Source: Flavobacteriales bacterium (GTDB lineage: Bacteria > Bacteroidota > Bacteroidia > Palsa-965). From it: DNA of 64,000 nucleotides. Below, in pieces: positions 6,185 through 62,574 of this stretch. The stretch lies in contig JBEIPA010000014.1 of the NCBI GenBank assembly GCA_040377305.1, positions 32,001 to 96,000 of the forward strand, given 5' to 3'. Position numbers and translations under genes: made by a program. The stretch's first letter is position 1, and the number at the start of each line of letters is the position of its first letter. Below the pieces are notes generated by a model. It was not told where the DNA came from, ran no database searches, and was given only the letters and a program-made list of their open reading frames with translations.

Positions 6185-7354
6185 ATGAAGAAGTTTTTCA
6201 AGCGAACCGGTCTTGTGTTGTTGGCGATTTTCATGCTCGCGAACCTTTTCATTTTGTTCTCCGGTCGCACTTATCTCTACAAAGGCGTTTGGAATACCTA
6301 CATGCAAGGTCGTTCAGGACCGGCGGTTGATGAATACAGCATTTTTGCGAACAACGAAATCAAAGGCGGCAACCCGAAGCCCTGGCCGATGTCGGTTAAC
6401 TACAACACCAACAAAATTCCGGCAGACATGATTACGAAAATGAGTGAGATTGAAACCGGGTCATTTCTCATCATTCAGCACGATTCCATTTTACACGAAG
6501 AATATTGGGGCGACTTCAGCGACAAGTCGTACACGAACTCATTCTCCATGGCGAAAACGGTGGTGAGCGTTTTGCTCGGTTGTGCCTTGCAGGATGGCTC
6601 AATAAAATCACTCGATCAACCCGTGAGCGATTTTCTTCCGGAATACAAGGAAGGTGATCTTTCGAAAATTACCATTCGTCATCTGGTGAACATGAACTCC
6701 GGAATTGCTTTTGATGAAGACTATGTGGACCCGTTCGCATATCCTGCCGAAGCTTATTACGGAAGCGATTTGCGTTCGCTCACGATGGGATACAGCACGG
6801 TGACGGAAGAACCCGGAAAAACTTTTCGCTACCTCAGTGGCAATTCTCAGCTCCTTGGATTTGTGCTGATGAAAGCAACCGGCAAAACACTTTCACAATA
6901 CGCATCCGAAAAATTGTGGAACCCACTTGGCTGCGAACAGCCTGCTTTCTGGAGTCTCGATGCAGAAGGTGGAAGCGAAAAATCATTCTGCTGCCTCAAC
7001 TCGAATGCGCGCGACTTCGCACGAATCGGTCAGTTGTATCTCGACAGCGGAAAATGGAATGGACAACAAATTGTTCCACTTGAATACGCCGTTGCTTCTA
7101 CGCAACCAACTGGAATGCTGAACCCCGACGGTACTCCTTGTCTCGAATACAGTCAGGCGTGGTGGATGATTCCCGACTACAAAGGACATCACATCTTTTA
7201 CGCACAAGGAATTCTTGGGCAATACGTGCTGGTGATTCCCGACATGGACATGGTTGTTGTTCGTCTCGGTAAACAACGACTCGCTGATGATGCCGATGGG
7301 GTTCCCGCTGATGTTTATTGGTATCTCGATGTGGCCCTCGCGATGGGTCAGTAA
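6185..7354 (+). CDS. serine hydrolase, beta-lactamase-related family
   Basis: SMAK (SxxK), FRYLSGN and ARDFARIGQLYL motifs; N-terminal anchor. Confidence 0.88.
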   Translation: MKKFFKRTGLVLLAIFMLANLFILFSGRTYLYKGVWNTYMQGRSGPAVDEYSIFANNEIKGGNPKPWPMSVNYNTNKIPADMITKMSEIETGSFLIIQHDSILHEEYWGDFSDKSYTNSFSMAKTVVSVLLGCALQDGSIKSLDQPVSDFLPEYKEGDLSKITIRHLVNMNSGIAFDEDYVDPFAYPAEAYYGSDLRSLTMGYSTVTEEPGKTFRYLSGNSQLLGFVLMKATGKTLSQYASEKLWNPLGCEQPAFWSLDAEGGSEKSFCCLNSNARDFARIGQLYLDSGKWNGQQIVPLEYAVASTQPTGMLNPDGTPCLEYSQAWWMIPDYKGHHIFYAQGILGQYVLVIPDMDMVVVRLGKQRLADDADGVPADVYWYLDVALAMGQ

Positions 7355-50737: not shown

Positions 50738-51976
50738 ATGAAGAACATTCTCCTGTTGTTTGCATTTGTAATCGGTTTCGCATCGTGCGGAACGAAAGAA
50801 GATCCGTTCACCCGAGAACAAAAAGAAATTGATGAATATCTTTCTTCCGATGGACTGAATGTTTACAAAGCATTCAAGGTTTCTATTCGCGGCACGAAAG
50901 CGGCAGGACAAGATCCGGAATTCGATAAAGCACGTGCACAGTTGTTTCTGCTAACCGGATATCTGCTGCAACAGGCGACAGACACCACGCACGAAGTAGA
51001 TGCGTTTGAAGTTTACGAAACTGTTACCGAAGCAAAACCTGCAATCGATGAACTAATCAAGAAAGACGAAGACAGTCTTCCAACGGTGATGGAAAATATT
51101 TCATTCGTGGTAGGGCCAACAAGCGGGGAAGATCCGTTGGCCGGTATGTTTACAGAGAGTGAAGAACATCTTATCCTAAGCGGACTTTGGTTTGCTGGTG
51201 CACATGCACATCCGGACCTTGCGCTGTACGAATTGAATCGCGTGCAATCTGCAGACATTCGCGATCCTCAATTCAAGTGTCTTGCTGAAATGACGCGTTC
51301 ACTATTGTATCTCACGAACAACTGGCCGTATCATGCTGAGAAAAGTGCGGATGATTTTCTCGCAGTTACTGAATCAGAAAAAGCGGCACTGATTGCGAGT
51401 CCATGGCCGATGGTCGATGCAAACGGTAACGAAGTGACACCGGAACAATCATGGCATCAGTTACGTGCGATCGGATATGTATTGCGCGGTGTTGCCCGTG
51501 AGAAATGCGAAGAGGATGAAAAGAAAGAACAGGGTATTGAAGATTTTGAAACCTTCATAACGGAAGCAGAAGCCGGCGGACTAGATCACAAAGTTGTGGA
51601 TCTGGTAGGTTTGCTGGTTGCACTGGAGAAAAAAGATGCCGACAGGGCGAACAGCTACATTGTGAAACTCGAAGCACGTCCTGATCTGACTCAGGAAGAA
51701 AAAGATCTGATTGCGGAAATCAAACCACTCGTTGCAGAAATGAAAGCGGAAGAAGCAAAGGATGCAATTGGTGAGAACAATTTACTCCCCTCTTTCGCGA
51801 CCAACCTGTTTGCAGAACAGTTCATGAATCTACAGGTTGTGAAAGATCTGAAAGCATCGGAAGGCGGAAAGAAATTCATTGGCATAACCGAAATCAAAGC
51901 TCAAGAGCTGATTCCGACCGATGCCATCGACAGCCTCAAAAAGGATGCTGAAGGATTGTTTGAGAAAGTTCTCTAG
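50738..51976 (+). CDS. helical lipoprotein, hypothetical
   Basis: Lipobox FASC. Confidence 0.72.
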   Translation: MKNILLLFAFVIGFASCGTKEDPFTREQKEIDEYLSSDGLNVYKAFKVSIRGTKAAGQDPEFDKARAQLFLLTGYLLQQATDTTHEVDAFEVYETVTEAKPAIDELIKKDEDSLPTVMENISFVVGPTSGEDPLAGMFTESEEHLILSGLWFAGAHAHPDLALYELNRVQSADIRDPQFKCLAEMTRSLLYLTNNWPYHAEKSADDFLAVTESEKAALIASPWPMVDANGNEVTPEQSWHQLRAIGYVLRGVAREKCEEDEKKEQGIEDFETFITEAEAGGLDHKVVDLVGLLVALEKKDADRANSYIVKLEARPDLTQEEKDLIAEIKPLVAEMKAEEAKDAIGENNLLPSFATNLFAEQFMNLQVVKDLKASEGGKKFIGITEIKAQELIPTDAIDSLKKDAEGLFEKVL

Positions 51977-52299
51977 TACGGATTCTTCATCGTTTCGCCC
52001 GCAACAGATCCGTTCTGATCAATGCACTGACCCTCTTTCAATGAAAAGCGTACGCCGTCTTTAGAGATGACCGTACCATCGGGTTTGATTGTGCTTCCGT
52101 TTTTCAGGAATACATCTCCCGTGATTTCTTTCCCGTCGAAAAGGACAACCATTTTTCCGTCTCGCATTCTCGCACAATATTGTCCTGGCTCGTCTGCAGA
52201 GAACTCGGTTTTAACAACTCGAGTATTCGCATCGTATGCGTAAGCCGCACCTGTTGAAAGCATTGCTCCTAATGACCAAATGAATAATCGATTTTTCAT
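51973..52299 (-). CDS. small secreted DUF6799-like protein
   Basis: M.DGKM...L.NG..I.PDG.V..KDG....L.EG.CI...G pattern. Confidence 0.7.
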   Translation of the reverse strand: MKNRLFIWSLGAMLSTGAAYAYDANTRVVKTEFSADEPGQYCARMRDGKMVVLFDGKEITGDVFLKNGSTIKPDGTVISKDGVRFSLKEGQCIDQNGSVAGETMKNPY

Positions 52300-54481: not shown

Positions 54482-55885
54482 TTACCCATCCATTCGCACG
54501 ATACGCGGACTGAACTTTCCTACGATGTCGACTAAATCAACTTGCGCCTCCATCACCTGAAAAATGTCTTTGTACGCATGTGGCGATTCATCCAGACCAC
54601 CACCGATTAACGTCACGTTATTTTCTTTCAGCACAGATTTCATCTCTGCATTCGTTACGTTTTTCATTGCTGCTGTACGCGACATTTTACGTCCCGCTCC
54701 ATGAGAAGCAGAGTTGATGGAAATGCTCGCACCTTTTCCGCGTACAATGAATCCCGGTGCAGTCATCGATCCCGGAATAATTCCGAGAACGCCTTTGCCG
54801 GCAGGTGTTGCACCTTTACGATGCACGATTACATCTTTGCCGTTGAATTTTTCTTTCCATGCAAAGTTGTGGTGGTTTTCTACCATCGCGATGGGTTCAA
54901 CACCAAGCGCAGCTGCAATCTTCTCGTGAATTTTGTGATGACACGCCGAAGCATAATCACCAGCGAGATTCATTGCAAGCCAATACTCTTGTCCTTCCTG
55001 AGTTGAAAGATCAAGCCACGCAAGATGTTTTGCTTCCTGCGGCAAACGACATTTCTCCATTGCCACTTTCGTGTAATGGTTCGCAATCGTTGCGCCAAGT
55101 CCGCGCGAACCGGAATGCGACAACAACGCGAGGTATCGACCTAATGGAAGATTGAACTCGTTGTTCTCATCGCTGATATCAACAACTCCGAATTCCACAA
55201 AGTGATTTCCCGAACCGGATGTTCCCATTTGCTTCACTGCTTTCAGCTGCAGACCTTTCAGCAATGGAATTTCATCGAACAACTTTCGGTCAGTCACTTC
55301 AAACTCTTTGTTCTCCTTGAACTCTTGTCCTGAACCAAAGAGTGTATTATCCGTAAGCACTTTGTAAAGTCCGCGCGAGTCGGTGTCGATGATCTCGTGC
55401 GGAGTCGGAAAAATACTCAGGCACATTCGGCAACCGATGTCGACGCCAACTCCATAAGGAATAATTGCGTTTTCCGTAGCGAGTACACCACCGATCGGCA
55501 ATCCATAACCCTGATGCGCATCCGGCATCAAAGCACCGGCAACTGCAACCGGCAAACGAATTGCCACATCCATTTGTTTACGCGCACCATCTTCGATCTG
55601 ATCTCCACCGTAAATTGCGTAAGATCCTTGTTCGATGCGCAATGCAATTTCGGGACCTTCCGCTTCTTTCGGCTTTTCCGTCAACGCATCCGCAATCGCA
55701 GCGAGGTTCGTGTCGTCGAGATAATCCGCAGGTGCAGCAAGAATATTTTTCAGCATCTCCATCACATCTTCACGTGATGATTTGCGGTAATACTTTTCAA
55801 TGATGTTGAGGGCAATTCCCACAACGCGTCCTTGTTTGTATCCAAGTTCGCGAAGGTGATCTCCGGTGATGTTTAATTTGTTCAT
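54482..55885 (-). CDS. rtcB: RNA 2',3'-cyclic phosphate/5'-OH ligase RtcB with N-terminal extension
   Basis: MPDAHQGYGLPIGGV, GVDIGC, GNHFVE, HSGSRG, HHN, HRKGATPA, PGSM, SHGAGR and DESPHAYK motifs. Confidence 0.96.
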   Translation of the reverse strand: MNKLNITGDHLRELGYKQGRVVGIALNIIEKYYRKSSREDVMEMLKNILAAPADYLDDTNLAAIADALTEKPKEAEGPEIALRIEQGSYAIYGGDQIEDGARKQMDVAIRLPVAVAGALMPDAHQGYGLPIGGVLATENAIIPYGVGVDIGCRMCLSIFPTPHEIIDTDSRGLYKVLTDNTLFGSGQEFKENKEFEVTDRKLFDEIPLLKGLQLKAVKQMGTSGSGNHFVEFGVVDISDENNEFNLPLGRYLALLSHSGSRGLGATIANHYTKVAMEKCRLPQEAKHLAWLDLSTQEGQEYWLAMNLAGDYASACHHKIHEKIAAALGVEPIAMVENHHNFAWKEKFNGKDVIVHRKGATPAGKGVLGIIPGSMTAPGFIVRGKGASISINSASHGAGRKMSRTAAMKNVTNAEMKSVLKENNVTLIGGGLDESPHAYKDIFQVMEAQVDLVDIVGKFSPRIVRMDG

Positions 55886-56514
55886 TTTACTAATTGTATT
55901 TCTTGTGTAACATAAATTCGAGGTTGTTCAACTTTATTTGTTGACTCGAATTTCATAGCGATGATTTCTTCGCAAGCGCGAGTAATGTGCACAACCATTT
56001 CATCGACATTAATATTTAATATCCCGTCTGCACGAAGAATTGTACCTCCACCTTGCGCATGTGAAAACCTGAGTTTGCCCTTTGGGGCAAAACAGTGAAC
56101 TAAGCCGCATCGCATTTCATCATATAGATCAAATGTTCCATTGGATTCTGCTTTTAAATACGCTCGATAATCCTTAAGAGATGCGAGATTCCGAATGGAG
56201 CGCTCAAAGTCCTCACGAACAGTGCCCGATTTATCCCAAACTGTTGGGGAATTTTCATTTATACACTTTCCGAAGAATTCAATTGCCGAACTCATGCAAA
56301 TTGCCCCGAGCCATGGCGATACTTTAACCACAGCTTGCATTTCGTCAATAAGTACAGTCCGCATAAATTGCTTAGTTGGAATGGGCATCTGCACAACAAA
56401 ATGTGATTTATCATCAGTAAAGCCAAAGACAACATTTTTCATTTGTTCATCCGTGAAAAGGTGCTTTCGTTGAAACTCTTGAAGGATCGATTGAACTGAT
56501 ATTTCTTTCATCAT
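55882..56514 (-). CDS. putative HEPN-domain protein
   Basis: SSAIEFFG helix followed by MRCGLVH (Rx4H); ATGA overlap with rtcB. Confidence 0.6.
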   Translation of the reverse strand: MMKEISVQSILQEFQRKHLFTDEQMKNVVFGFTDDKSHFVVQMPIPTKQFMRTVLIDEMQAVVKVSPWLGAICMSSAIEFFGKCINENSPTVWDKSGTVREDFERSIRNLASLKDYRAYLKAESNGTFDLYDEMRCGLVHCFAPKGKLRFSHAQGGGTILRADGILNINVDEMVVHITRACEEIIAMKFESTNKVEQPRIYVTQEIQLVK

Positions 56515-56552
56515 GATTATTCTATACTAATCAATTTACAAAATTTGTTTTG

Positions 56553-56623
56553 ACGACCGACAGGGATTCGAACCCCGATCCTCAGATTCGTATTCTGAGA
56601 TTCTTCCGTTGAACTATCGATCG
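56553..56623 (-). tRNA. tRNA-Arg(ACG), no encoded CCA
   Basis: CGATCGA/TCGGTCG acceptor, TCAGA-ATACGAA-TCTGA anticodon arm, GGTTCGAATCC T arm. Confidence 0.85.
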
Positions 56624-56630
56624 AAATACA

Positions 56631-56653
56631 GTGTCGGGATACGATCCCGACAC
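56631..56653. repeat. small palindrome GTGTCGGGAT-ACG-ATCCCGACAC (related copies near 58529-58553 and 58651-58671)
   Basis: 10-bp perfect stem; the motif recurs within this locus. Confidence 0.65.
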
Positions 56654-56656
56654 CTC

Positions 56657-56788
56657 ACAGGCAAAAAGCGAAAAGAGACTGTTTGCATTGCTCTACCACT
56701 GAGCTACACACAACTTTCGCTATGTGGCCGGATTCGAACCGGCGTCCCATGGATTGGAAGTCGAAGTAACTCTTTTCTACGGCACTGT
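56657..56788 (-). ncRNA. Y RNA of YrlA type (Y1): Ro-binding-like stem plus circularly permuted tRNA domain
   Basis: Order is T arm (GCCGGTTCGAATCCGGC), GAAA-capped acceptor stem (CACATAGC GAAA GTTGTGTG), D arm (TAGCTCAGTGGTAGAGC), enclosed by a terminal stem; lies near the TROVE gene. Confidence 0.88.
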
Positions 56789-56794
56789 TCATTG

Positions 56795-56868
56795 GGTGTT
56801 AGATCGGTTTCGATCCGATTACCTCTTGCTTCACAAGCAAGCGCTCTCCCGAGTGAGCTACAAACACC
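56795..56868 (-). tRNA. tRNA-His(GTG) with G-1:C73 and atypical T loop (ATCGAAA)
   Basis: CTTGC-TTGTGAA-GCAAG anticodon arm; 8-position acceptor with one mismatch. Confidence 0.8.
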
Positions 56869-56873
56869 GTGTT

Positions 56874-56957
56874 CAGTAGGCAGTTTGGCAGTAGTGCAGT
56901 TGGCAGTCAAAATATAATTCTCTGACTGCCTACTGCCCAACTGCTTACTGCCTACTG
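56874..56957. repeat. REP-like imperfect palindrome of GGCAGT units (second copy at 58336-58421)
   Basis: cagtaggcag...gactgcctactg arms; near-identical architecture in both copies. Confidence 0.75.
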
Positions 56958-56963
56958 TTCTTG

Positions 56964-57037
56964 TACTCTGTGTGGGATTCGAACCCACGTGATCTGGTCG
57001 AAAACCAGATATACTAGACCAACTATATGAACAGAGC
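56964..57037 (-). tRNA. tRNA-Glu(TTC), no CCA
   Basis: GCTCTGT/ACAGAGT acceptor, TCTGG-TTTTCGA-CCAGA anticodon arm, GTGGGTTCGAATCCCAC T arm. Confidence 0.85.
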
Positions 57038-57039
57038 CT

Positions 57040-57117
57040 GATTGATTTGCGGATGACGCGCCGGGTTCTCTCCTTTGGAGAGTTAGAGAGGCGCGGCGCG
57101 TAATCCGCAAATCAATC
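57040..57117. repeat. long spacer hairpin between tRNAs
   Basis: gattgatttgcggat.acgcgccg / cggcgcgt.atccgcaaatcaatc. Confidence 0.75.
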
Positions 57118-57122
57118 TTCAG

Positions 57123-57196
57123 TCGCGACAGCAGGATTCGAACCTACATCTTCTCCAGTCCAAGTGGAGAGGCTTAGCCAATTAGCCGACCTCGCG
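57123..57196 (-). tRNA. tRNA-Pro(TGG), no CCA
   Basis: CTCCA-CTTGGAC-TGGAG anticodon arm, GTAGGTTCGAATCCTGC T arm, C1:G72 and A73. Confidence 0.82.
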
Positions 57197-57285
57197 ATGT
57201 TGATTAGCTGATTTTTAATTTCTGATTTCTGATGCTGAAAGGTGTTACCCCAAGAGCTAATCAAAAATCAGCTAATCCTATTTAT

Positions 57286-57390
57286 TGTGAGGAAAAAATC
57301 ACAGAAAAGACGAAAGCGCCATCTTTCGATGTCAGGATTCGAACCTGTTTCTTCCTGCCACGAAGTATCTCTTCTGTTACGTCACTCACA
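57286..57390 (-). ncRNA. Y-like RNA Y2: shared scaffold plus T arm and GAAA mini-hairpin
   Basis: TGTGAG-TGACGTA-ACAGAAGAG-ATACTTCG...CAGGTTCGAATCCTG...CTTTTCTGT-GATTTTTTC-CTCACA. Confidence 0.78.
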
Positions 57391-57418
57391 AACTCAAAGA
57401 ACAAATTCAATTTCAAAA

Positions 57419-57513
57419 TAAGCGGGCAAAAGTCAATCAGAGTCTGCCGGGATTTGAACCCGCGTCTTTCGACTTTCTACCAAAGAAGTATCTCTGATTT
57501 ACGGCACCGTTTA
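57419..57513 (-). ncRNA. Y-like RNA Y3: shared scaffold plus D-loop-like TGGTAGA, GAAA hairpin and T arm
   Basis: TAAACGG-TGCCGTA-AATCAGAG-ATACTTC...CGGGTTCAAATCCCG...CTCTGATT-GACTTTTGC-CCGCTTA. Confidence 0.78.
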
Positions 57514-57523
57514 CTTTTAACTA

Positions 57524-58051
57524 TTATCTCGTCGGGATCTTCAATCCCATTTTCTTCATCGCAAGCAATGCTTCTGCATTTCCGATTGCGTCGTTGACCG
57601 GGTTGTGATCATGACGCGTTTTGCGAAACAATCGCTTCCACTCGCTGTTCAGTCCTCCATCCATTTTCATTCCACAATACAGATCACCGATTCGTCTGCC
57701 TGAAAATCCAAACGGATTTTTTCCCAGGTAGAAATGGAAGTAATAATTAATCCACTGCCAATCGAACGCGAGGTTATCGCTGATGAATATTGCTTTGCCG
57801 TCGGATGTTGCGTTCAACCATTCGGAGAAACGTTTCATCACTTCGGCGGGCTCCTCGAACGACTCGTGTTGCCCGCGTGTGAAACCACTTACTGCAAGTG
57901 CATCCGGAATCCATTCTTTGGAAATTGGTTGCGTCTTTCCGTAGAATGTTTTCGCGAGTGTGGGTTCTATCACCACTGCACCGAAGCAAACCATCGAATA
58001 TTTATTTGGGATGGGCCCATCGGCCTCTACATCCACTACTATGTAACTCAT
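57524..58051 (-). CDS. DEDDh 3'-5' exoribonuclease (Rv2179c/RNase AS-like)
   Basis: VDVEADGP, SDNLAFD and HNPVNDA motifs; likely start MSYIVVD. Confidence 0.85.
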   Translation of the reverse strand: MSYIVVDVEADGPIPNKYSMVCFGAVVIEPTLAKTFYGKTQPISKEWIPDALAVSGFTRGQHESFEEPAEVMKRFSEWLNATSDGKAIFISDNLAFDWQWINYYFHFYLGKNPFGFSGRRIGDLYCGMKMDGGLNSEWKRLFRKTRHDHNPVNDAIGNAEALLAMKKMGLKIPTR

Positions 58052-58083
58052 TTTGTTTTTGTTTTTAATCAATTTAATAATTT

Positions 58084-58156
58084 AAGCTGGCAACAAACTC
58101 GCAGAGGTTTTGGTCTAATTAACAGTTAGAAGTAACTCTGCAATACGGCACAGCTT
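58084..58156 (-). ncRNA. Y-like RNA Y4: minimal scaffold with only a short hairpin insert
   Basis: AAGCTG-TGCCGTA-TTGCAGAG-TTACTTC...CTCTGCGA-GTTTGTTGC-CAGCTT. Confidence 0.75.
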
Positions 58157-58214
58157 GCCGATGTGCCGATTTCCAATATGCCAATATGCCGATTGGAAAT
58201 ACCTCAATAAAATT

Positions 58215-58332
58215 CGGAAGCAAAAAACGATTCGGGTGGGGCGTCGCAATGAGGATTTGCACCTCTTCCTGGTTTTTACATCAGGACCCTTGCCCCCTGT
58301 CGAGCGAAGTATCCCGGCTCTACGGCATTCCG
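58215..58332 (-). ncRNA. Y-like RNA Y5: scaffold plus D-armless tRNA-like insert
   Basis: CGGAA-TGCCGTA-GAGCCGGG-ATACTTCG...TCCTGA/CCAGGA hairpin, GAGG-TGCAAAT-CCTC T arm...CCCGAATC-GTTTTTTGC-TTCCG. Confidence 0.75.
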
Positions 58333-58335
58333 TTT

Positions 58336-58421
58336 CAGTAGGCCGTTTGGCAGGCGTTCAGTAGGCAGTCAAAATTTATTCCTAATGACTGCCGACTGCA
58401 CTACCGCACTACTGCCTACTG
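58336..58421. repeat. REP-like GGCAGT palindrome, second copy
   Basis: Similar to 56874-56957. Confidence 0.72.
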
Positions 58422-58426
58422 ATTAA

Positions 58427-58646
58427 ACAACGGTAACTGGCAACAAGTCTGCTTTCTGCTTTCACAGAATACGGCCGTCCTATTTCTGTATTGCTACAGA
58501 CAGTTGACTGGTAATCATCATCCGCATGGTGTCAGGATCTGAAATCCTGATACTGCGCACTCAGATTAACGTTCGCGAACCACAGTTACCCGTGCATCAC
58601 TACCTTAGGACCGTTATCGAAGTATGACCCGTTTACGACACGTTGT
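58427..58646 (-). ncRNA. Y-like RNA Y6: scaffold plus about 170-nt insert containing 23S rRNA H69/H70-like sequence
   Basis: ACAACG-TGTCGTA-AACGGGTC-ATACTTCG-ATAACGGTCCTAAGGTAG...CGGCCGTA...GACTTGTT-GCCAGTTAC-CGTTGT. Confidence 0.75.
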
Positions 58647-58686
58647 GTGATGTCAGGATCCTATCCTGACAGTGCACATAATTTTT

Positions 58687-58766: not shown

Positions 58767-60281
58767 CTACAACTCGAGTTGTTTTATCATCGCGATTGCA
58801 TCTGTACCGTTTTCTGCAGCATACAATACGTCGAACACTTTATCTGACCAGCCCGCGATGAGTGTTACATCGTCGCGCTGCACACTGATTGGTGTGTTAC
58901 CGTAACCTGCGAGGTCGAACAAGTACAGTTTCGCCATTGGCGCAATCTGTTTGTATTCTTTCCACGCCGTCTGCAACGAATCACCGTCAGCTTTGGTATT
59001 CCACATCTGGCAGTCAGTGAACATCATCACTTTGTCCATCACAACATTGCGCTGAACAAGATCTTTGATCACCAGGTAACCATTTGTGGCGTAACCAACT
59101 TCACCTTCCCGCTTGTAGTACTCATCAACATTCGCAAGTACTCCACGGTTAGGCATGTTGATTACCTTCCAGCGATCTCCGAACATTCCGGAAACCACTC
59201 GTTCACACTTGCTCTGCATCAGCATACCCAGTACCAGACCGATATCGAACAAATACACTTTGCTCTTCGCCGAGATTGGTTTCTGCATTGAACCCGAAAC
59301 GTCACACGCAATCAACACACGTGTTTTGTAATCGAATCCGCTGATGTTTTTCGCTGAAGCTACAATTGCATCTTCCAGCGCGTTAAGTATCATCGACACG
59401 TAATCAGCTTTCAGCACTTTCACTTCACGGTATGCAGACAGGAAACGGAATGGCAACTGCTTCGATTTCGCAACCTGGTTTGCATCAGAAAGCGTATCAC
59501 ACACTTTTTTGATTGCATCCCATGATACACCCGCTTCAATCATGTTACGGATGTTACGCAACATCGCCATGTATCCCAGCTTACCGCTGAAGATCAGTTC
59601 TTCCCATTTCGCACGAACCGCAAGCTCTTTTGCTTTTGCATCAGCGAATTTTTGCTGACCCAAAGCAGAAAGTTCAGTTTCCCAGGTATAAGCAACAGAC
59701 AGCTCTTTCGCAGCGATCTTGTTGAAGACTGCTTGCTGTTCATCACTTTTCGCTTTCGGGTGAACAAGGAACAATGCATCACGCAACGTTACTGCCGCTT
59801 CACGGTTGTATTTCGAGAACTGGTATTCATCAAAACGATTGAACGCCTTTGCGAGTCCTTTCTGTACCTGTTTCGAAAGCTTGTTCAGTTTCTTAGTTCC
59901 CGAACGGTTGTTCGCCAGTTGGTAGTAAGCCAGAAGCTCAGTGATCTCATCAGCACGCTGAACGACACCGTTCACCGCTTTGGATACAACTATATTTCCG
60001 GAGTTACGTTTTGCAAGTTCGACTGCAAGCACCTGTGGAATAGAACGCATGTACATTTTGTTACGTGCATACACCGCAAGCTTCGCCACGAATTCAGCAT
60101 CTGTCTTCTCCATGAGATCCACGATACGTTGAAGACGCTCGTTTCCTTTCTCATAGAACGAATCGCTCAGTCCTGCGGTTACTACCGCTGAATACAGTTC
60201 GAGCTCAGGAGTCATTGCGAATGCTTTTGCGCCTTCGTAATTAGTGACTGCTGTTTTACGTTTGAAGATGTTGAATTTCAT
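58767..60281 (-). CDS. rsr: TROVE domain protein (Ro60/Rsr orthologue) with vWA domain
   Basis: NYEGAKAF, YARNKMYMRS, TWE, GYMAMLRNIRN, QLPFRFLSAY, MIDAS DVSGSM and AGWSD motifs. Confidence 0.93.
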   Translation of the reverse strand: MKFNIFKRKTAVTNYEGAKAFAMTPELELYSAVVTAGLSDSFYEKGNERLQRIVDLMEKTDAEFVAKLAVYARNKMYMRSIPQVLAVELAKRNSGNIVVSKAVNGVVQRADEITELLAYYQLANNRSGTKKLNKLSKQVQKGLAKAFNRFDEYQFSKYNREAAVTLRDALFLVHPKAKSDEQQAVFNKIAAKELSVAYTWETELSALGQQKFADAKAKELAVRAKWEELIFSGKLGYMAMLRNIRNMIEAGVSWDAIKKVCDTLSDANQVAKSKQLPFRFLSAYREVKVLKADYVSMILNALEDAIVASAKNISGFDYKTRVLIACDVSGSMQKPISAKSKVYLFDIGLVLGMLMQSKCERVVSGMFGDRWKVINMPNRGVLANVDEYYKREGEVGYATNGYLVIKDLVQRNVVMDKVMMFTDCQMWNTKADGDSLQTAWKEYKQIAPMAKLYLFDLAGYGNTPISVQRDDVTLIAGWSDKVFDVLYAAENGTDAIAMIKQLEL

Positions 60282-60348: not shown

Positions 60349-60434
60349 TTCGATTTATTTTAACTTTTTGTTTTAATCGCCTGATTTTCAGTTGGCATTA
60401 ATTCGTTTTTTCAATCGCAACATTTATTGCGGCG

Positions 60435-60507
60435 TTGGAAAGGAAGGGCTCGAACCTTCGACCTTGTGCGTATAAGGCACGTGCTCTTACCACTGAGCTA
60501 CTCTCCA
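60435..60507 (-). tRNA. tRNA-Ile(TAT), rare anticodon, no CCA
   Basis: TGGAGAG/CTTTCCA acceptor, GTGC-CTTATAC-GCAC anticodon arm, GAAGGTTCGAGCCCTTC T arm. Confidence 0.85.
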
Positions 60508-60514
60508 AGTCTTG

Positions 60515-60586
60515 CGGCGCGGATTGGACTTGAACCAATATAATCTCCCTTAACAGGGGAGAGCTCTACCATTGAGCTACCAGGCC
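60515..60586 (-). tRNA. tRNA-Asn(GTT), no CCA
   Basis: CTCCC-CTGTTAA-GGGAG anticodon arm, ATTGGTTCAAGTCCAAT T arm, G73. Confidence 0.85.
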
Positions 60587-60591
60587 ATTTG

Positions 60592-60664
60592 CGGTAACGA
60601 TGGGATTCGAACCCACAACTTTCCGATAGACAATCGGACGCTCTAGCCGTTGAACTACGCTACC
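60592..60664 (-). tRNA. tRNA-Asp(GTC), no CCA
   Basis: GGTAGCG/CGTTACC acceptor, TCCGA-TTGTCTA-TCGGA anticodon arm, G73. Confidence 0.87.
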
Positions 60665-60669
60665 ATTTG

Positions 60670-60742
60670 TGGACAAGGAAGGAATTGAACCTTCATCTTC
60701 TGATCTTCAGTCAGCCGCATTCACCGCGTTTGCTACCTGTCC
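60670..60742 (-). tRNA. tRNA-Phe(GAA), no CCA
   Basis: GGACAGG/CTTGTCC acceptor, CTGA-CTGAAGA-TCAG anticodon arm, GAAGGTTCAATTCCTTC T arm. Confidence 0.8.
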
Positions 60743-60748
60743 GTTTTG

Positions 60749-60822
60749 TTGACCCACCAGGGCTCGAACCTGGAACCCCCACTTTAAAAGAGCGGTGCAT
60801 CTAACCATTGAGCTATGGATCA
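60749..60822 (-). tRNA. tRNA-Lys(TTT), no CCA
   Basis: TGATCCA/TGGGTCA acceptor, CCGCT-CTTTTAA-AGTGG anticodon arm, CCAGGTTCGAGCCCTGG T arm. Confidence 0.86.
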
Positions 60823-60834
60823 ATATTTCTTCGC

Positions 60835-60891
60835 TTGTCCTCCTTCGGCAAAGCCTGTGCTGAGCGAAGTCGAAGTGCTCAGTCTGACAAG
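60835..60891. repeat. Bacteroidota REP-like element (CTGAGCGAAGTCGAAG); complementary half CTTCGACTACGCTCAG near 60981-61010
   Basis: The two halves are complementary and bracket tRNA-Gln. Confidence 0.55.
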
Positions 60892-60894
60892 TCG

Positions 60895-60965
60895 TTGTCG
60901 GAAATGGATTTGAACCACTATAGCCAGATTCAAACTCTGGTGTCCTACCATTAGACGATCCGACA
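60895..60965 (-). tRNA. tRNA-Gln(TTG), no CCA
   Basis: TGTCGGA/TCCGACA acceptor (U1:A72), CCAGA-GTTTGAA-TCTGG anticodon arm. Confidence 0.86.
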
Positions 60966-61545: not shown

Positions 61546-62574
61546 ATGCCGATAAACAAACTCGCACTCATCCGCTACAAGACAATTGATAACTGTCTGC
61601 AGAACCGTTTCCGCAAATGGACACTTGACGATCTAGTGGATGCATGCTCGCGTACACTGGAAGAGTTCGAAGGAATTACACAAGGAGTAAGCAAGCGTAC
61701 TGTTCAGCTCGATATTCAGACGATGCGCAGTGAAAAGCTAGGATACAATGCTCCTATTGTGGTCAGCGACAAGAAGTATTATTCGTACGAAGACAAGAAT
61801 TACAGCATCACGAATATTCCGTTGACGAGTCAGGATTTAGGAACGCTCACGGAAGTTGTAGATATTCTACGCCAGTTTAAAGGGTTCGGTTACTTCGAAG
61901 AGCTCAGCACAATGGTGAACAAGCTCGAGGACAAAGTGCAGTCTCAGAAGAACAAAGGTCGCTCGTATATACACTTTGAGAAAAATGATTTGCTAAAAGG
62001 TCTCGAGTACATCGAATCATTGCACAAGGCGATCATTCGTCAGAAAACGATTGACGTATTATATCAGTCGTTCAAAGCACGTGAAGCGACAAGCATCATT
62101 TTTCATCCTTATCTGCTCAAGGAATACCGCAACCGCTGGTTTGTGATCGGCTCAACGCAAAAGAAAACAATTCTTACTCTGGCACTGGATAGAATTTTTT
62201 CTGTGAAAGAAGTCGGTGGAGAGAAATACATCAAGAATACCTTCTTTGATGTTGACTCGTACTTTGATGATACGATTGGCGTTACGAAGAATCTCGGGAT
62301 TCGACCACAATTGGTCGTGATGAAAATTGATCGTACGAATGCGCCATACGTAATCACAAAACCGATTCACCACACGCAGAAGATTCTGAAGACAGAACCC
62401 GACGGAATGATTTTCAGTATTAACGTGACGTGGAATTTTGAGTTGGAAAGAGAAATCCTTGGGTTTGGTGAACAGATAAAGGTGTTATCGCCAAAGAGAT
62501 TGCAGAATAAGATTAGCTGGAGGGTGAAGAGGATGGTGGAGAGGTATGAGGAACTTCAACCAAATGAACGATGA
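61546..62574 (+). CDS. HTH-WYL-WCX transcriptional regulator
   Basis: SKRTVQLDIQ HTH, HPYLLKEYRNRWFV...LALDRI WYL core, ILGFGEQIKVLSP C-terminus. Confidence 0.93.
   Translation: MPINKLALIRYKTIDNCLQNRFRKWTLDDLVDACSRTLEEFEGITQGVSKRTVQLDIQTMRSEKLGYNAPIVVSDKKYYSYEDKNYSITNIPLTSQDLGTLTEVVDILRQFKGFGYFEELSTMVNKLEDKVQSQKNKGRSYIHFEKNDLLKGLEYIESLHKAIIRQKTIDVLYQSFKAREATSIIFHPYLLKEYRNRWFVIGSTQKKTILTLALDRIFSVKEVGGEKYIKNTFFDVDSYFDDTIGVTKNLGIRPQLVVMKIDRTNAPYVITKPIHHTQKILKTEPDGMIFSINVTWNFELEREILGFGEQIKVLSPKRLQNKISWRVKRMVERYEELQPNER

Follow-up and report, generated by a model that had tools for sequence, protein, structure and literature searches.

Six Y-RNA-like elements beside a Flavobacteriales Ro60 gene share one handle and carry different heads

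We analysed a 64,000-nt stretch of DNA from a Flavobacteriales bacterium (GenBank assembly GCA_040377305.1, contig JBEIPA010000014.1, positions 32,001 to 96,000), hereafter the window, which is part of the contig that we call C7 in a genome of 5.18 Mb and 60 contigs. Here six minus-strand elements follow rsr, the gene for a Ro60 orthologue, and each of them builds the same two-stranded RNA handle around a head of its own. We regard these elements as probably being paralogous Y RNAs of the YrlA/YrlB kind that belong to an rsr...rtcB RNA-repair operon, are cut from one transcript, bind Rsr through the handle and differ in their heads. A first-pass annotation of the window had placed six such elements at this locus, and matches to a covariance model (R2, described below) cover each of them and extend 2-5 nt beyond its limits on either side:
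Element 1: 56653-56792, minus strand; R2 62.0 bits; 85-nt head
Element 2: 57284-57392, minus strand; R2 42.8 bits, E = 1e-10; 52-nt head
Element 3: 57418-57514, minus strand; R2 62.0 bits, E = 1.3e-16; 42-nt head
Element 4: 58082-58158, minus strand; R1 84.9 bits, R2 60.4 bits; 22-nt head
Element 5: 58212-58335, minus strand; R2 47.0 bits, E = 5.3e-12; 69-nt head
Element 6: 58425-58648, minus strand; R2 44.2 bits, E = 3.8e-11; 169-nt head

The 5' half of the handle is the same in all six elements: an outer helix of 4-6 bp, the motif UG(C/A/U)CGUA, an inner helix of 8-9 bp and the motif (A/U)UACUUC, after which the head of 22-169 nt begins. The 3' half, likewise present in all six, consists of the return of the inner helix, a 9-nt strand of the form G-(pyrimidine-rich)-N'-C and the return of the outer helix. 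The inner helix has 8 bp except in element 2 (9 bp) and element 5, where six of eight positions are paired; the 2x2 mismatch in the latter, whose motif is UGCCGUA, recurs in its three closest orthologues. In element 6, UGUCGUA occupies 58640-58634, the inner helix pairs 58633-58626 with 58449-58442, AUACUUC lies at 58625-58619 and the 3' strand is GCCAGUUAC (58441-58433). Past a bulged U, the G of the 5' motif forms a pair with the C that ends the 3' strand, and the variable base N forms one with the base preceding that C. In the window UGC stands with GC in four elements, UGA with UC in one (UGACGUA of element 2) and UGU with AC in one, and across 40 elements of nine genomes N-N' is C-G 20 times, U-A nine times, A-U six times and U-G five times, with no unpaired case. 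The covariation between TGnCGTA and the 3' strand that had been pointed out in the first-pass annotation is a true base pair next to an invariant G-C, not a loose correlation. The unpaired remainder of the handle is CGUA facing G and five or six mostly U residues, that is, an asymmetric loop of 4 x 7. The proposed layout of stems that differ in sequence yet stay complementary was recovered by an anchored parse in six of six elements, and 34 distinct inner helices occur among the 40 elements; minimum-energy folds of single sequences give the common frame for four of the six.

Two covariance models were used. Five short copies, four of them from relatives and one from the window, went into R1, and R2 was rebuilt from 150 matches of the R1 search, comprising relatives and two window copies. 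Over the 64-kb window R2 found exactly the six elements at full length (E = 1e-10 to 1e-16) and nothing further up to E = 1. A whole-genome search with R1 gave four matches, all inside the locus; R1 was insufficient for elements 1, 2, 5 and 6, which it missed or misaligned and which R2 recovers. A MAFFT alignment of the six full elements was discarded, since their heads differ and the 3' halves were misaligned, and the anchored parse and a model-based alignment were used instead. In the 150-row alignment (148 distinct rows, 16 pairs, 2352 cells), standard pairs fill 96.6% of the cells, a share that falls to 66.7% in shuffled rows. Covariation scores 0.793, compared with 0.208 after shuffling (none of 500 shuffles reached it) and with 0.120 or less for 3' partners slid by 1-3 columns; an alignment fitted to a model is biased toward its structure, and the slid controls carry the same bias. 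Both sides vary in 15 of the 16 handle pairs.

The array occurs together with the TROVE (Ro60) gene. In the family to which the window belongs (35 genomes), clusters of at least two motifs were found in 11, which are the same 11 that have a TROVE gene, and in none of the other 24, where only scattered motif matches at control level occur; when the unpublished genome G015 is excluded, the counts are 10 of 10 against 0 of 24. In a phylum sample of 120 other Bacteroidota genomes, R2 matches were present in seven of the eight genomes with TROVE and in none of the 112 without it, and the seven array-bearing genomes have 2-5 clustered R2 matches on the contig and strand of the TROVE gene, 1-3 kb from it. 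We also collected 80 related loci, defined as the surroundings of Rsr relatives with 55-89% identity, which include Chryseobacterium, Flavobacterium, Sphingobacterium, Pedobacter, Chitinophaga, Prevotella, Cyclobacteriaceae and many metagenome-assembled genomes; 16 of the 80 hold less than 3 kb downstream of rsr. All 189 R1 matches in these loci are on the rsr strand, as are 353 matches of a relaxed 5' motif against three on the opposite strand, and 342 motif matches close into a full handle, with closed handles at 77 of the 80 loci. The numbers of loci with a given number of elements are 0 (3 loci), 1 (4), 2 (5), 3 (15), 4 (17), 5 (19), 6 (9), 7 (3), 8 (3), 10 (1) and 11 (1). Because the counts are usually 3-6 and reach at most 11, the six copies of the window are an ordinary number for the phylum. 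In the window itself, the six elements sit 119-2114 nt downstream of rsr on its strand, within the 4-kb criterion of Chen et al. 2014. Since the presence of the array follows TROVE, and strand and position agree, comparison of sequences strongly supports the assignment of the element family to the TROVE/Ro60 gene as Y-RNA-type noncoding RNAs. The first-pass annotation had made this assignment, and a YrlA-like element 1 and a 5' motif close to the published one point in the same direction. It had also called for a covariance-model search of Bacteroidota, which found the scaffold across the phylum and linked to TROVE.

On their sequences, the heads copy parts of the translation apparatus, namely the elbow and acceptor region of tRNA, T arms, an anticodon-arm look-alike and a 23S site. 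The head of element 1 is a YrlA-type permuted tRNA-like domain with a T arm, a closed acceptor-like stem and a D arm but no anticodon arm, and the element aligns over all 114 positions of the Rfam YrlA model RF02553 (39.8 bits, E = 2.2e-6); T and D motifs are both present in 30 of the 150 relatives. Element 2 carries a T-arm-like hairpin, CAGG-UUCGAAU-CCUG, followed by a GAAA-tetraloop hairpin, and element 3 has the opposite order, a GAAA-tetraloop hairpin and then the T-arm-like CGGG-UUCAAAU-CCCG. In element 4, the head and the last two bases of UUACUUC form UCUAA-CUGUUAA-UUAGA, a 5-bp stem with a 7-nt loop that has the same sequence as the anticodon loop in the two tRNA-Asn(GUU) genes of the genome. 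Elements 2, 3 and 4 fit the published description of YrlB as a simple hairpin or a lone T arm (PMC4201824), a comparison made by description, with no YrlB model. Short heads resembling that of element 4 are frequent: among 59 distinct ones, 33 form a 5-bp stem (at least four of five pairs) with a 7-nt loop, and 27 of these have an anticodon-like loop, in which position 2 is U and position 6 a purine, compared with 1.2 in shuffles (standard deviation 1.1, maximum 6, n = 300). Their middle triplets are GUC (12), UUU (5), GUA, UAG, UCC and CCA (2 each) and single others, and the loop CUGUCAC is constant across loci although its closing pairs vary. In the head of element 5 a GGGG/CCCC stem is joined by two hairpins, one of 7 bp that shows compensatory changes and one, GAGG-UGCAAAU-CCUC, that is invariant and T-loop-like. 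A consensus fold of element 5 with five orthologues shows compensatory change in nine of 30 pairs; alone against Rfam, it gave only matches to small nucleolar RNAs at chance level. The first-pass reading of the heads thus stands for the permuted tRNA and the two T-arm hairpins; the bare hairpin is there but, with its anticodon-like loop, is more than that; and the reading holds only partly for the D-armless tRNA-like domain assigned to element 5, which is a fair but unproven picture.

The head of element 6 opens with AUAACGGUCCUAAGGUAG, an 18-nt exact copy of a universally conserved stretch of 23S domain IV. Its local score against 23S is 38, compared with 22.0 in 200 shuffles (standard deviation 1.9, maximum 30), and the copy corresponds to positions 1925-1945 of a complete Bacteroidia 23S with 95% identity over 21 nt; these comparisons used the 23S of relatives, as the genome itself has no assembled 23S. 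In E. coli numbering, we take the copied stretch to be helix 69, in its 3' half, continuing into helices 70-71. Next, at the place of helix 71 in 23S, stands a hairpin of 5 bp whose loop is GUAA. On the same handle, this type of head recurs in nine further loci, among them five Chryseobacterium species, and there the copy reaches up to 26 exact nt, or 30-32 nt at 91-97%, including the loop of helix 69. The rRNA-like domain proposed in the first-pass annotation is confirmed for the 18-nt match and the adjoining GUAA-loop hairpin, but not for the rest of the head: a longer likeness was rejected (scores of 40, 36, 33 and 45 against shuffle means of 32.8-37.1 and maxima of 45-51), the head has no match to Rfam LSU_rRNA_bacteria RF02541 at E up to 10, and element 6 alone against Rfam gave small nucleolar RNA matches at chance level only. 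A second rRNA site was found in an element of Prevotella sp. P3-122 (locus L056, 4553-4738, plus strand), which has the outer helix, UGCCGUA, an 8-bp helix, UUACUUC and the 3' strand AAGUGUUGC. Its 84-nt head, a copy of the GTPase-associated centre in 23S helices 42-44, scores 73.6 bits with the Rfam LSU model, above its cut-off of 50 (E = 1.9e-19, model positions 1077-1160), and rRNA copies on the handle are therefore real. Two further handle-bearing elements lie between this one and rsr. The classes of head persist from genus to genus and show both compensatory changes and functional sites copied exactly.

Bacterial Y RNAs that go with Rsr and RtcB are a known kind of system, of which the present one is an expanded form. 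In the parts of Chen et al. 2014 (PMC4201824) drawn on here, YrlA is defined by GNCGAAN0-1G near the 5' end, a conserved YUAY preceding the head and a tRNA-like domain composed of a T arm, a closed acceptor-like stem and a D arm, and GNCGAAN0-1G is thought to be the Rsr site, as it resembles the GGUCCGA contacted by frog Ro60. GNCGUA is present in all six elements, is near invariant in the 150 relatives and agrees with GNCGAA at five of six positions, and (U/A)UAC follows it at the distance of one 8-bp helix, matching the published placement of YUAY. Like YrlA and YrlB of Salmonella Typhimurium and Mycobacterium smegmatis, the elements lie beside rsr on its strand, often with rtcB (the rsr-yrlBA-rtcBA operon in the consulted text of PMC4201824 and PMC7790460), have an end-to-end terminal helix, with G-N-C-G close to the 5' end and YUAY just ahead of the head, and comprise one tRNA-like copy (T, closed acceptor, D) with others that have a T arm or a plain hairpin. 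The same part of PMC4201824 gives at least two Y RNAs in each studied species, the second a hairpin or T-arm carrier, and for each Bacteroidetes species its Table S1 gives a single putative YrlA. Here, in contrast to the two reported, there are six copies (mode 4-5, up to 11 in the 80 loci), and both handle strands are conserved, whereas only the 5' strand is described there as recognisable in Salmonella and M. smegmatis. Further differences from the YrlA/YrlB operons are a WYL regulator instead of RtcR, no rtcA seen here, heads with 23S copies and anticodon-arm look-alikes, and a score under the cut-off of the Rfam model.

Several small RNAs beside rsr, some of them with T arms, are also known from Deinococcus radiodurans (Yrn1, Yrn2 and RNAs a, b and d); the text cited from PMC4201824 describes up to five of them and a Y RNA co-transcribed with a tRNA. 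The Deinococcus RNAs and a tRNA come from one precursor, and in the complex of Rsr, Y RNA and PNPase (RYPER) there is likewise a handle with an effector head that brings an exoribonuclease; its handle sequence is different, and here an Rv2179c-like exoribonuclease is encoded within the array. Metazoan Y RNAs, as described in part of PMC12135203, similarly have a bulged end helix as the protein site and a variable distal loop as the effector module. A search of the elements against the metazoan Y RNA family RF00019 gave no sequence match at E up to 10. We know of no tRNA or rRNA mimicry in animal Y RNAs. Other RNAs of the cell that attract a binding protein by imitating its rRNA or tRNA site include rRNA mimics in ribosomal-protein mRNA leaders and tmRNA, which act in cis on translation or in ribosome rescue; the copies described here differ from these in sitting on a Ro60 handle. 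The closest solved relative of Rsr is Ro60 of Thermus phage phiLo (PDB 9L5Y and 9KOP), whose RNAs Yrl1 and Yrl2 are adjacent to the Ro60 gene, were found through a CGAA motif and were shown to bind, according to the part of PMC12135203 used here; unlike the present elements, these two lie upstream of the gene in a phage setting, and that part reports no mimic heads. Relative to the literature searched, in which we found no prior description, the arrays of typically 3-6 and up to 11 elements, the two-strand handle across a phylum, the heads with anticodon arms and rRNA sites and the replacement of RtcR by WYL are new; Burroughs and Aravind 2016 and the Wolin-lab reviews of 2019 and 2020 were outside the search, so novelty is possibly overrated.

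The array is embedded among protein and tRNA genes of the same strand:
rsr: 58767-60281, minus strand; Ro60 orthologue, 504 aa (Pfam TROVE 2.4e-30, vWA_Ro60 2.6e-5)
Exoribonuclease gene within the RNA array: 57524-58072, minus strand; Rv2179c-like DEDD 3'-5' exoribonuclease (Pfam PF16473, 1.6e-6, 28.4 bits, cut-off 27)
rtcB: 54482-55885, minus strand; RNA ligase, last gene of the presumed operon (Pfam RtcB 2.9e-81)
WYL-WCX domain protein gene: 61546-62574, plus strand, divergent (Pfam WYL 7.2e-12, WCX 4.4e-11)
Four tRNA genes among the elements: Arg-ACG 56552-56623, His 56794-56867, Glu-UUC 56963-57037 and Pro-UGG 57122-57196, minus strand (ARAGORN, Rfam)
Six tRNA genes upstream of rsr: Ile-UAU, Asn, Asp, Phe, Lys-UUU and Gln-UUG, 60434-60965, minus strand

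On the minus strand the order is a hairpin (61043-61017), the six tRNA genes (60965-60434), rsr, element 6, a long hairpin, element 5, element 4, the exoribonuclease gene (58072-57524), element 3, element 2, tRNA-Pro, tRNA-Glu and tRNA-His with long hairpins between them, element 1, tRNA-Arg, an open reading frame of 210 aa, rtcB and a hairpin (54469-54443). Terminator-like hairpins occur in the operon only before the first tRNA (61043-61017) and right after rtcB (54469-54443). The order rsr-array-rtcB is kept in all eight family loci, and rtcB shares the rsr strand at 41 of the 80 related loci. rsr is the sole TROVE gene of the genome; its product combines a TROVE ring and a vWA domain, with phage Ro60 (9L5Y/9KOP) as nearest solved structures (E = 1e-29, residues 9-496). 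A homologue of the exoribonuclease was found at just three of the 80 loci, and one of the WYL-WCX protein at 50, on the strand opposite to rsr in 48; this protein is likely to regulate the operon in place of RtcR. A sigma-70 promoter scan returned 17 hits against 13.4 expected, Bacteroidota promoters lying outside the consensus of the scan. An earlier idea that the region is a prophage was dropped: its outer flanks carry the housekeeping genes for pheS, pyruvate kinase and cyclophilin, and we therefore consider it a chromosomal accessory island.

The tRNA Ile-UAU is unique in the genome, and the other nine of the ten locus tRNAs are second copies of isoacceptors present once elsewhere. These second copies match their counterparts at only 46-55 of 72-75 positions, and in several the flanks of the anticodon loop have changed (for example Arg AUACGAA versus CUACGGA). 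The locus tRNAs form a stand-by set of divergent copies. In the related loci, tRNA genes stand beside rsr at 32 of 80, with 142 of 155 on its strand, the commonest being Lys-UUU, Pro-UGG, Phe, Arg-ACG and Gln-UUG. Five further tRNA genes lie just beyond the end of the window (contig C7, 96294-96987). Near-perfect long hairpins with arms of 16-37 nt separate RNA genes at 58335-58422, 57040-57117, 57202-57277, 58644-58678 and approximately 56872-56952; two of them have GGCAGU-rich arms in common, and a similar hairpin follows the element-5 orthologue at locus L044. The 210-aa open reading frame (55882-56514, minus strand), whose stop overlaps the start of rtcB, has no Pfam family and no homologue at 88 related loci. 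A 108-aa protein (51973-52299, minus strand) contains DUF6799 (2e-17) and weakly matches the nuclease-inhibitor family of phage T4 IPI (1.8e-4). At a Chryseobacterium locus (L098), an Rfam Flavo-1 RNA (62.8 bits, cut-off 42) at 6581-6671 on the minus strand abuts the 3' end of rsr on the opposite strand.

The proposed mechanism has three steps, given here in order of falling confidence. One transcript would begin upstream of the first tRNA, end at the terminator that follows rtcB and be cut into tRNAs and Y RNAs, for which the long hairpins between the units, possibly sites of the RNase III type, are likely places of processing. Rsr would then bind the asymmetric loop and its flanking pairs, that is, the bulged U, the G-C and N-N' pairs and CGUA against the G-pyrimidine-rich strand, in parallel with the reading by Ro60 of the 5' strand GGUCCGA or GNCGAA in known Y RNAs. 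The analogy with the bulged terminal helix of Y RNAs made in the first-pass annotation fits the bulged U and the asymmetric loop, the presumed contact site. Finally, each head may bring a different protein or RNA to the Rsr ring, as the head in Deinococcus brings PNPase. Plausible targets are tRNA- and ribosome-binding factors, the exoribonuclease of the operon and RtcB substrates, and, going by the heads, candidates are proteins that recognise the elbow or the anticodon arm of tRNA, helix 69-71 or the GTPase centre. By the same analogy, the exoribonuclease encoded in the array is a candidate effector nuclease of the Rsr particle. The elements could in this way direct one Ro60 to several substrates or partners, and the use of multiple Y RNAs for several partners is an existing hypothesis of the field in the cited part of PMC4201824.

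The unpaired motifs are near invariant in the 150 relatives, which speaks for this interpretation: the 5' motif counts are U149 G150 (C122/U28) C149 G148 U149 A123 and those of the second motif U150 A144 C149 U142 U150 C149. Several observations weigh against it. The invariance was counted on rows chosen by a model that already contained these motifs. The fifth position of the 5' motif is U (GNCGUA), where the published motif has A (GNCGAA). Only element 1 scores with the YrlA model, and it does so under the gathering cut-off (39.8 against 69 bits); elements 2-6 have no YrlA match at E up to 10 and no Rfam family, and YrlA at its gathering cut-off gave no match in 13 related loci. The comparison with Rfam suggested in the first-pass annotation thus supports a YrlA alignment for element 1 and gives no match for the other five. 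The Rfam alignment sets the inner helix, and not the GNCGUA loop, on the terminal stem, so that the outer handle is unseen by that model. The sorting of relatives by T and D motifs relied on motifs typed from recall, and the head of element 6 is not rRNA-like past about 45 nt. One TROVE-bearing genome of the eight in the phylum sample, G150, is without an R2 match. One of its two TROVE matches falls in a 1255-aa open frame; G150 may perhaps have a fused or divergent Ro60 with a different RNA partner.

That the elements are a dispersed repeat, of the repetitive extragenic palindromic (REP) type or like a miniature inverted-repeat transposable element, or a chance similarity, is hardly credible. 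Nothing beyond the repetition within 2 kb speaks for it, and the elements are confined to one locus, with helices that differ in sequence and nevertheless remain paired. The 5' pattern occurs six times in these 2 kb and four times in the remaining 5.17 Mb (reversed control, two), which is near control level outside the locus and therefore excludes the genome-wide scatter that the first-pass annotation had named as a possible refutation; the R1 matches, too, are restricted to the locus. It is improbable, though less so, that the handle serves RtcB or the exoribonuclease, or is a processing stem of a tRNA-rich transcript, with the linkage to rsr incidental. The interleaving of the elements with tRNA genes and long hairpins and the presence of rtcB on the rsr strand at 41 of 80 loci would suit such a role, but the arrays follow TROVE and not rtcB or tRNAs: closed handles are found at 77 of the 80 loci, rtcB at 41, tRNAs at 32 and the exoribonuclease at three.

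Two other explanations accept the handle and read the heads differently. The copies may regulate access to the Rsr cavity or the amount of Rsr, with heads that serve as interchangeable nuclease-resistant caps. Nuclease protection by the tRNA fold is one of the roles offered in Chen et al. 2014, in the text consulted (PMC4201824), and the size and kind of the heads vary greatly between loci; head classes that cross genera, compensatory changes and exact copies of functional sites are more than a cap needs, and we consider this explanation unlikely. Slightly better placed, though still doubtful, is the explanation that the Rsr-bound RNAs are decoys or sensors whose heads are baits that absorb or report ribotoxins (anticodon nucleases, rRNA-cutting toxins) or drugs aimed at the copied sites, in step with RtcB repair and spare tRNAs. 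It would account for the 27 anticodon-loop-like heads among the 59 short ones (at most six in 300 shuffles), for the identity of the element 4 loop with the anticodon loop of tRNA-Asn, for the heads that copy rRNA sites, and for RtcB in an operon in which all tRNAs but one are divergent second copies. It also accords with the proposal of Hughes et al. 2020, in the part consulted (PMC7790460), that YrlA, through its tRNA-like domain, may be a competitive inhibitor of an anticodon nuclease. On the other hand, no toxin gene was noted at the locus, the mini-stems are short and owe part of their sequence to the invariant UUC, what adjoins the copied sites in 23S is missing from the rRNA copies, and the pairing of toxins with these tRNAs is presumed. 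In its strongest form, which we put forward with little confidence, Rsr with a display rack of translation-machinery look-alikes would be both decoy and damage sensor, an RNA-based immune or repair module and not housekeeping quality control. The parts on show would be those that ribotoxins, phage nucleases or drugs attack, namely the Asp, Asn, Tyr and Lys anticodon arms, the tRNA elbow, 23S helices 69-71 and the GTPase centre, and attack on tRNA or rRNA would be coupled to Rsr-guided decay, RtcB ligation and stand-by tRNAs under the WYL regulator.

The interpretation as paralogous Y RNAs with one Rsr-binding handle and different heads bears on the open role of bacterial Ro60 and its Y RNAs beyond Deinococcus and on the partner of the YrlA head. 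The handle is sharply defined on both strands throughout the phylum and can be mutated or used as bait, and the natural series of heads on one handle lends itself to a direct pull-down comparison of recruited partners, for which heads with known original binding sites (anticodon arm, helices 69-71, GTPase centre) name the candidates. Ro60 of gut Bacteroidota genera has been linked to lupus autoimmunity, and the covariance model detects Bacteroidota Y RNAs missed by Rfam, those of gut genera included.

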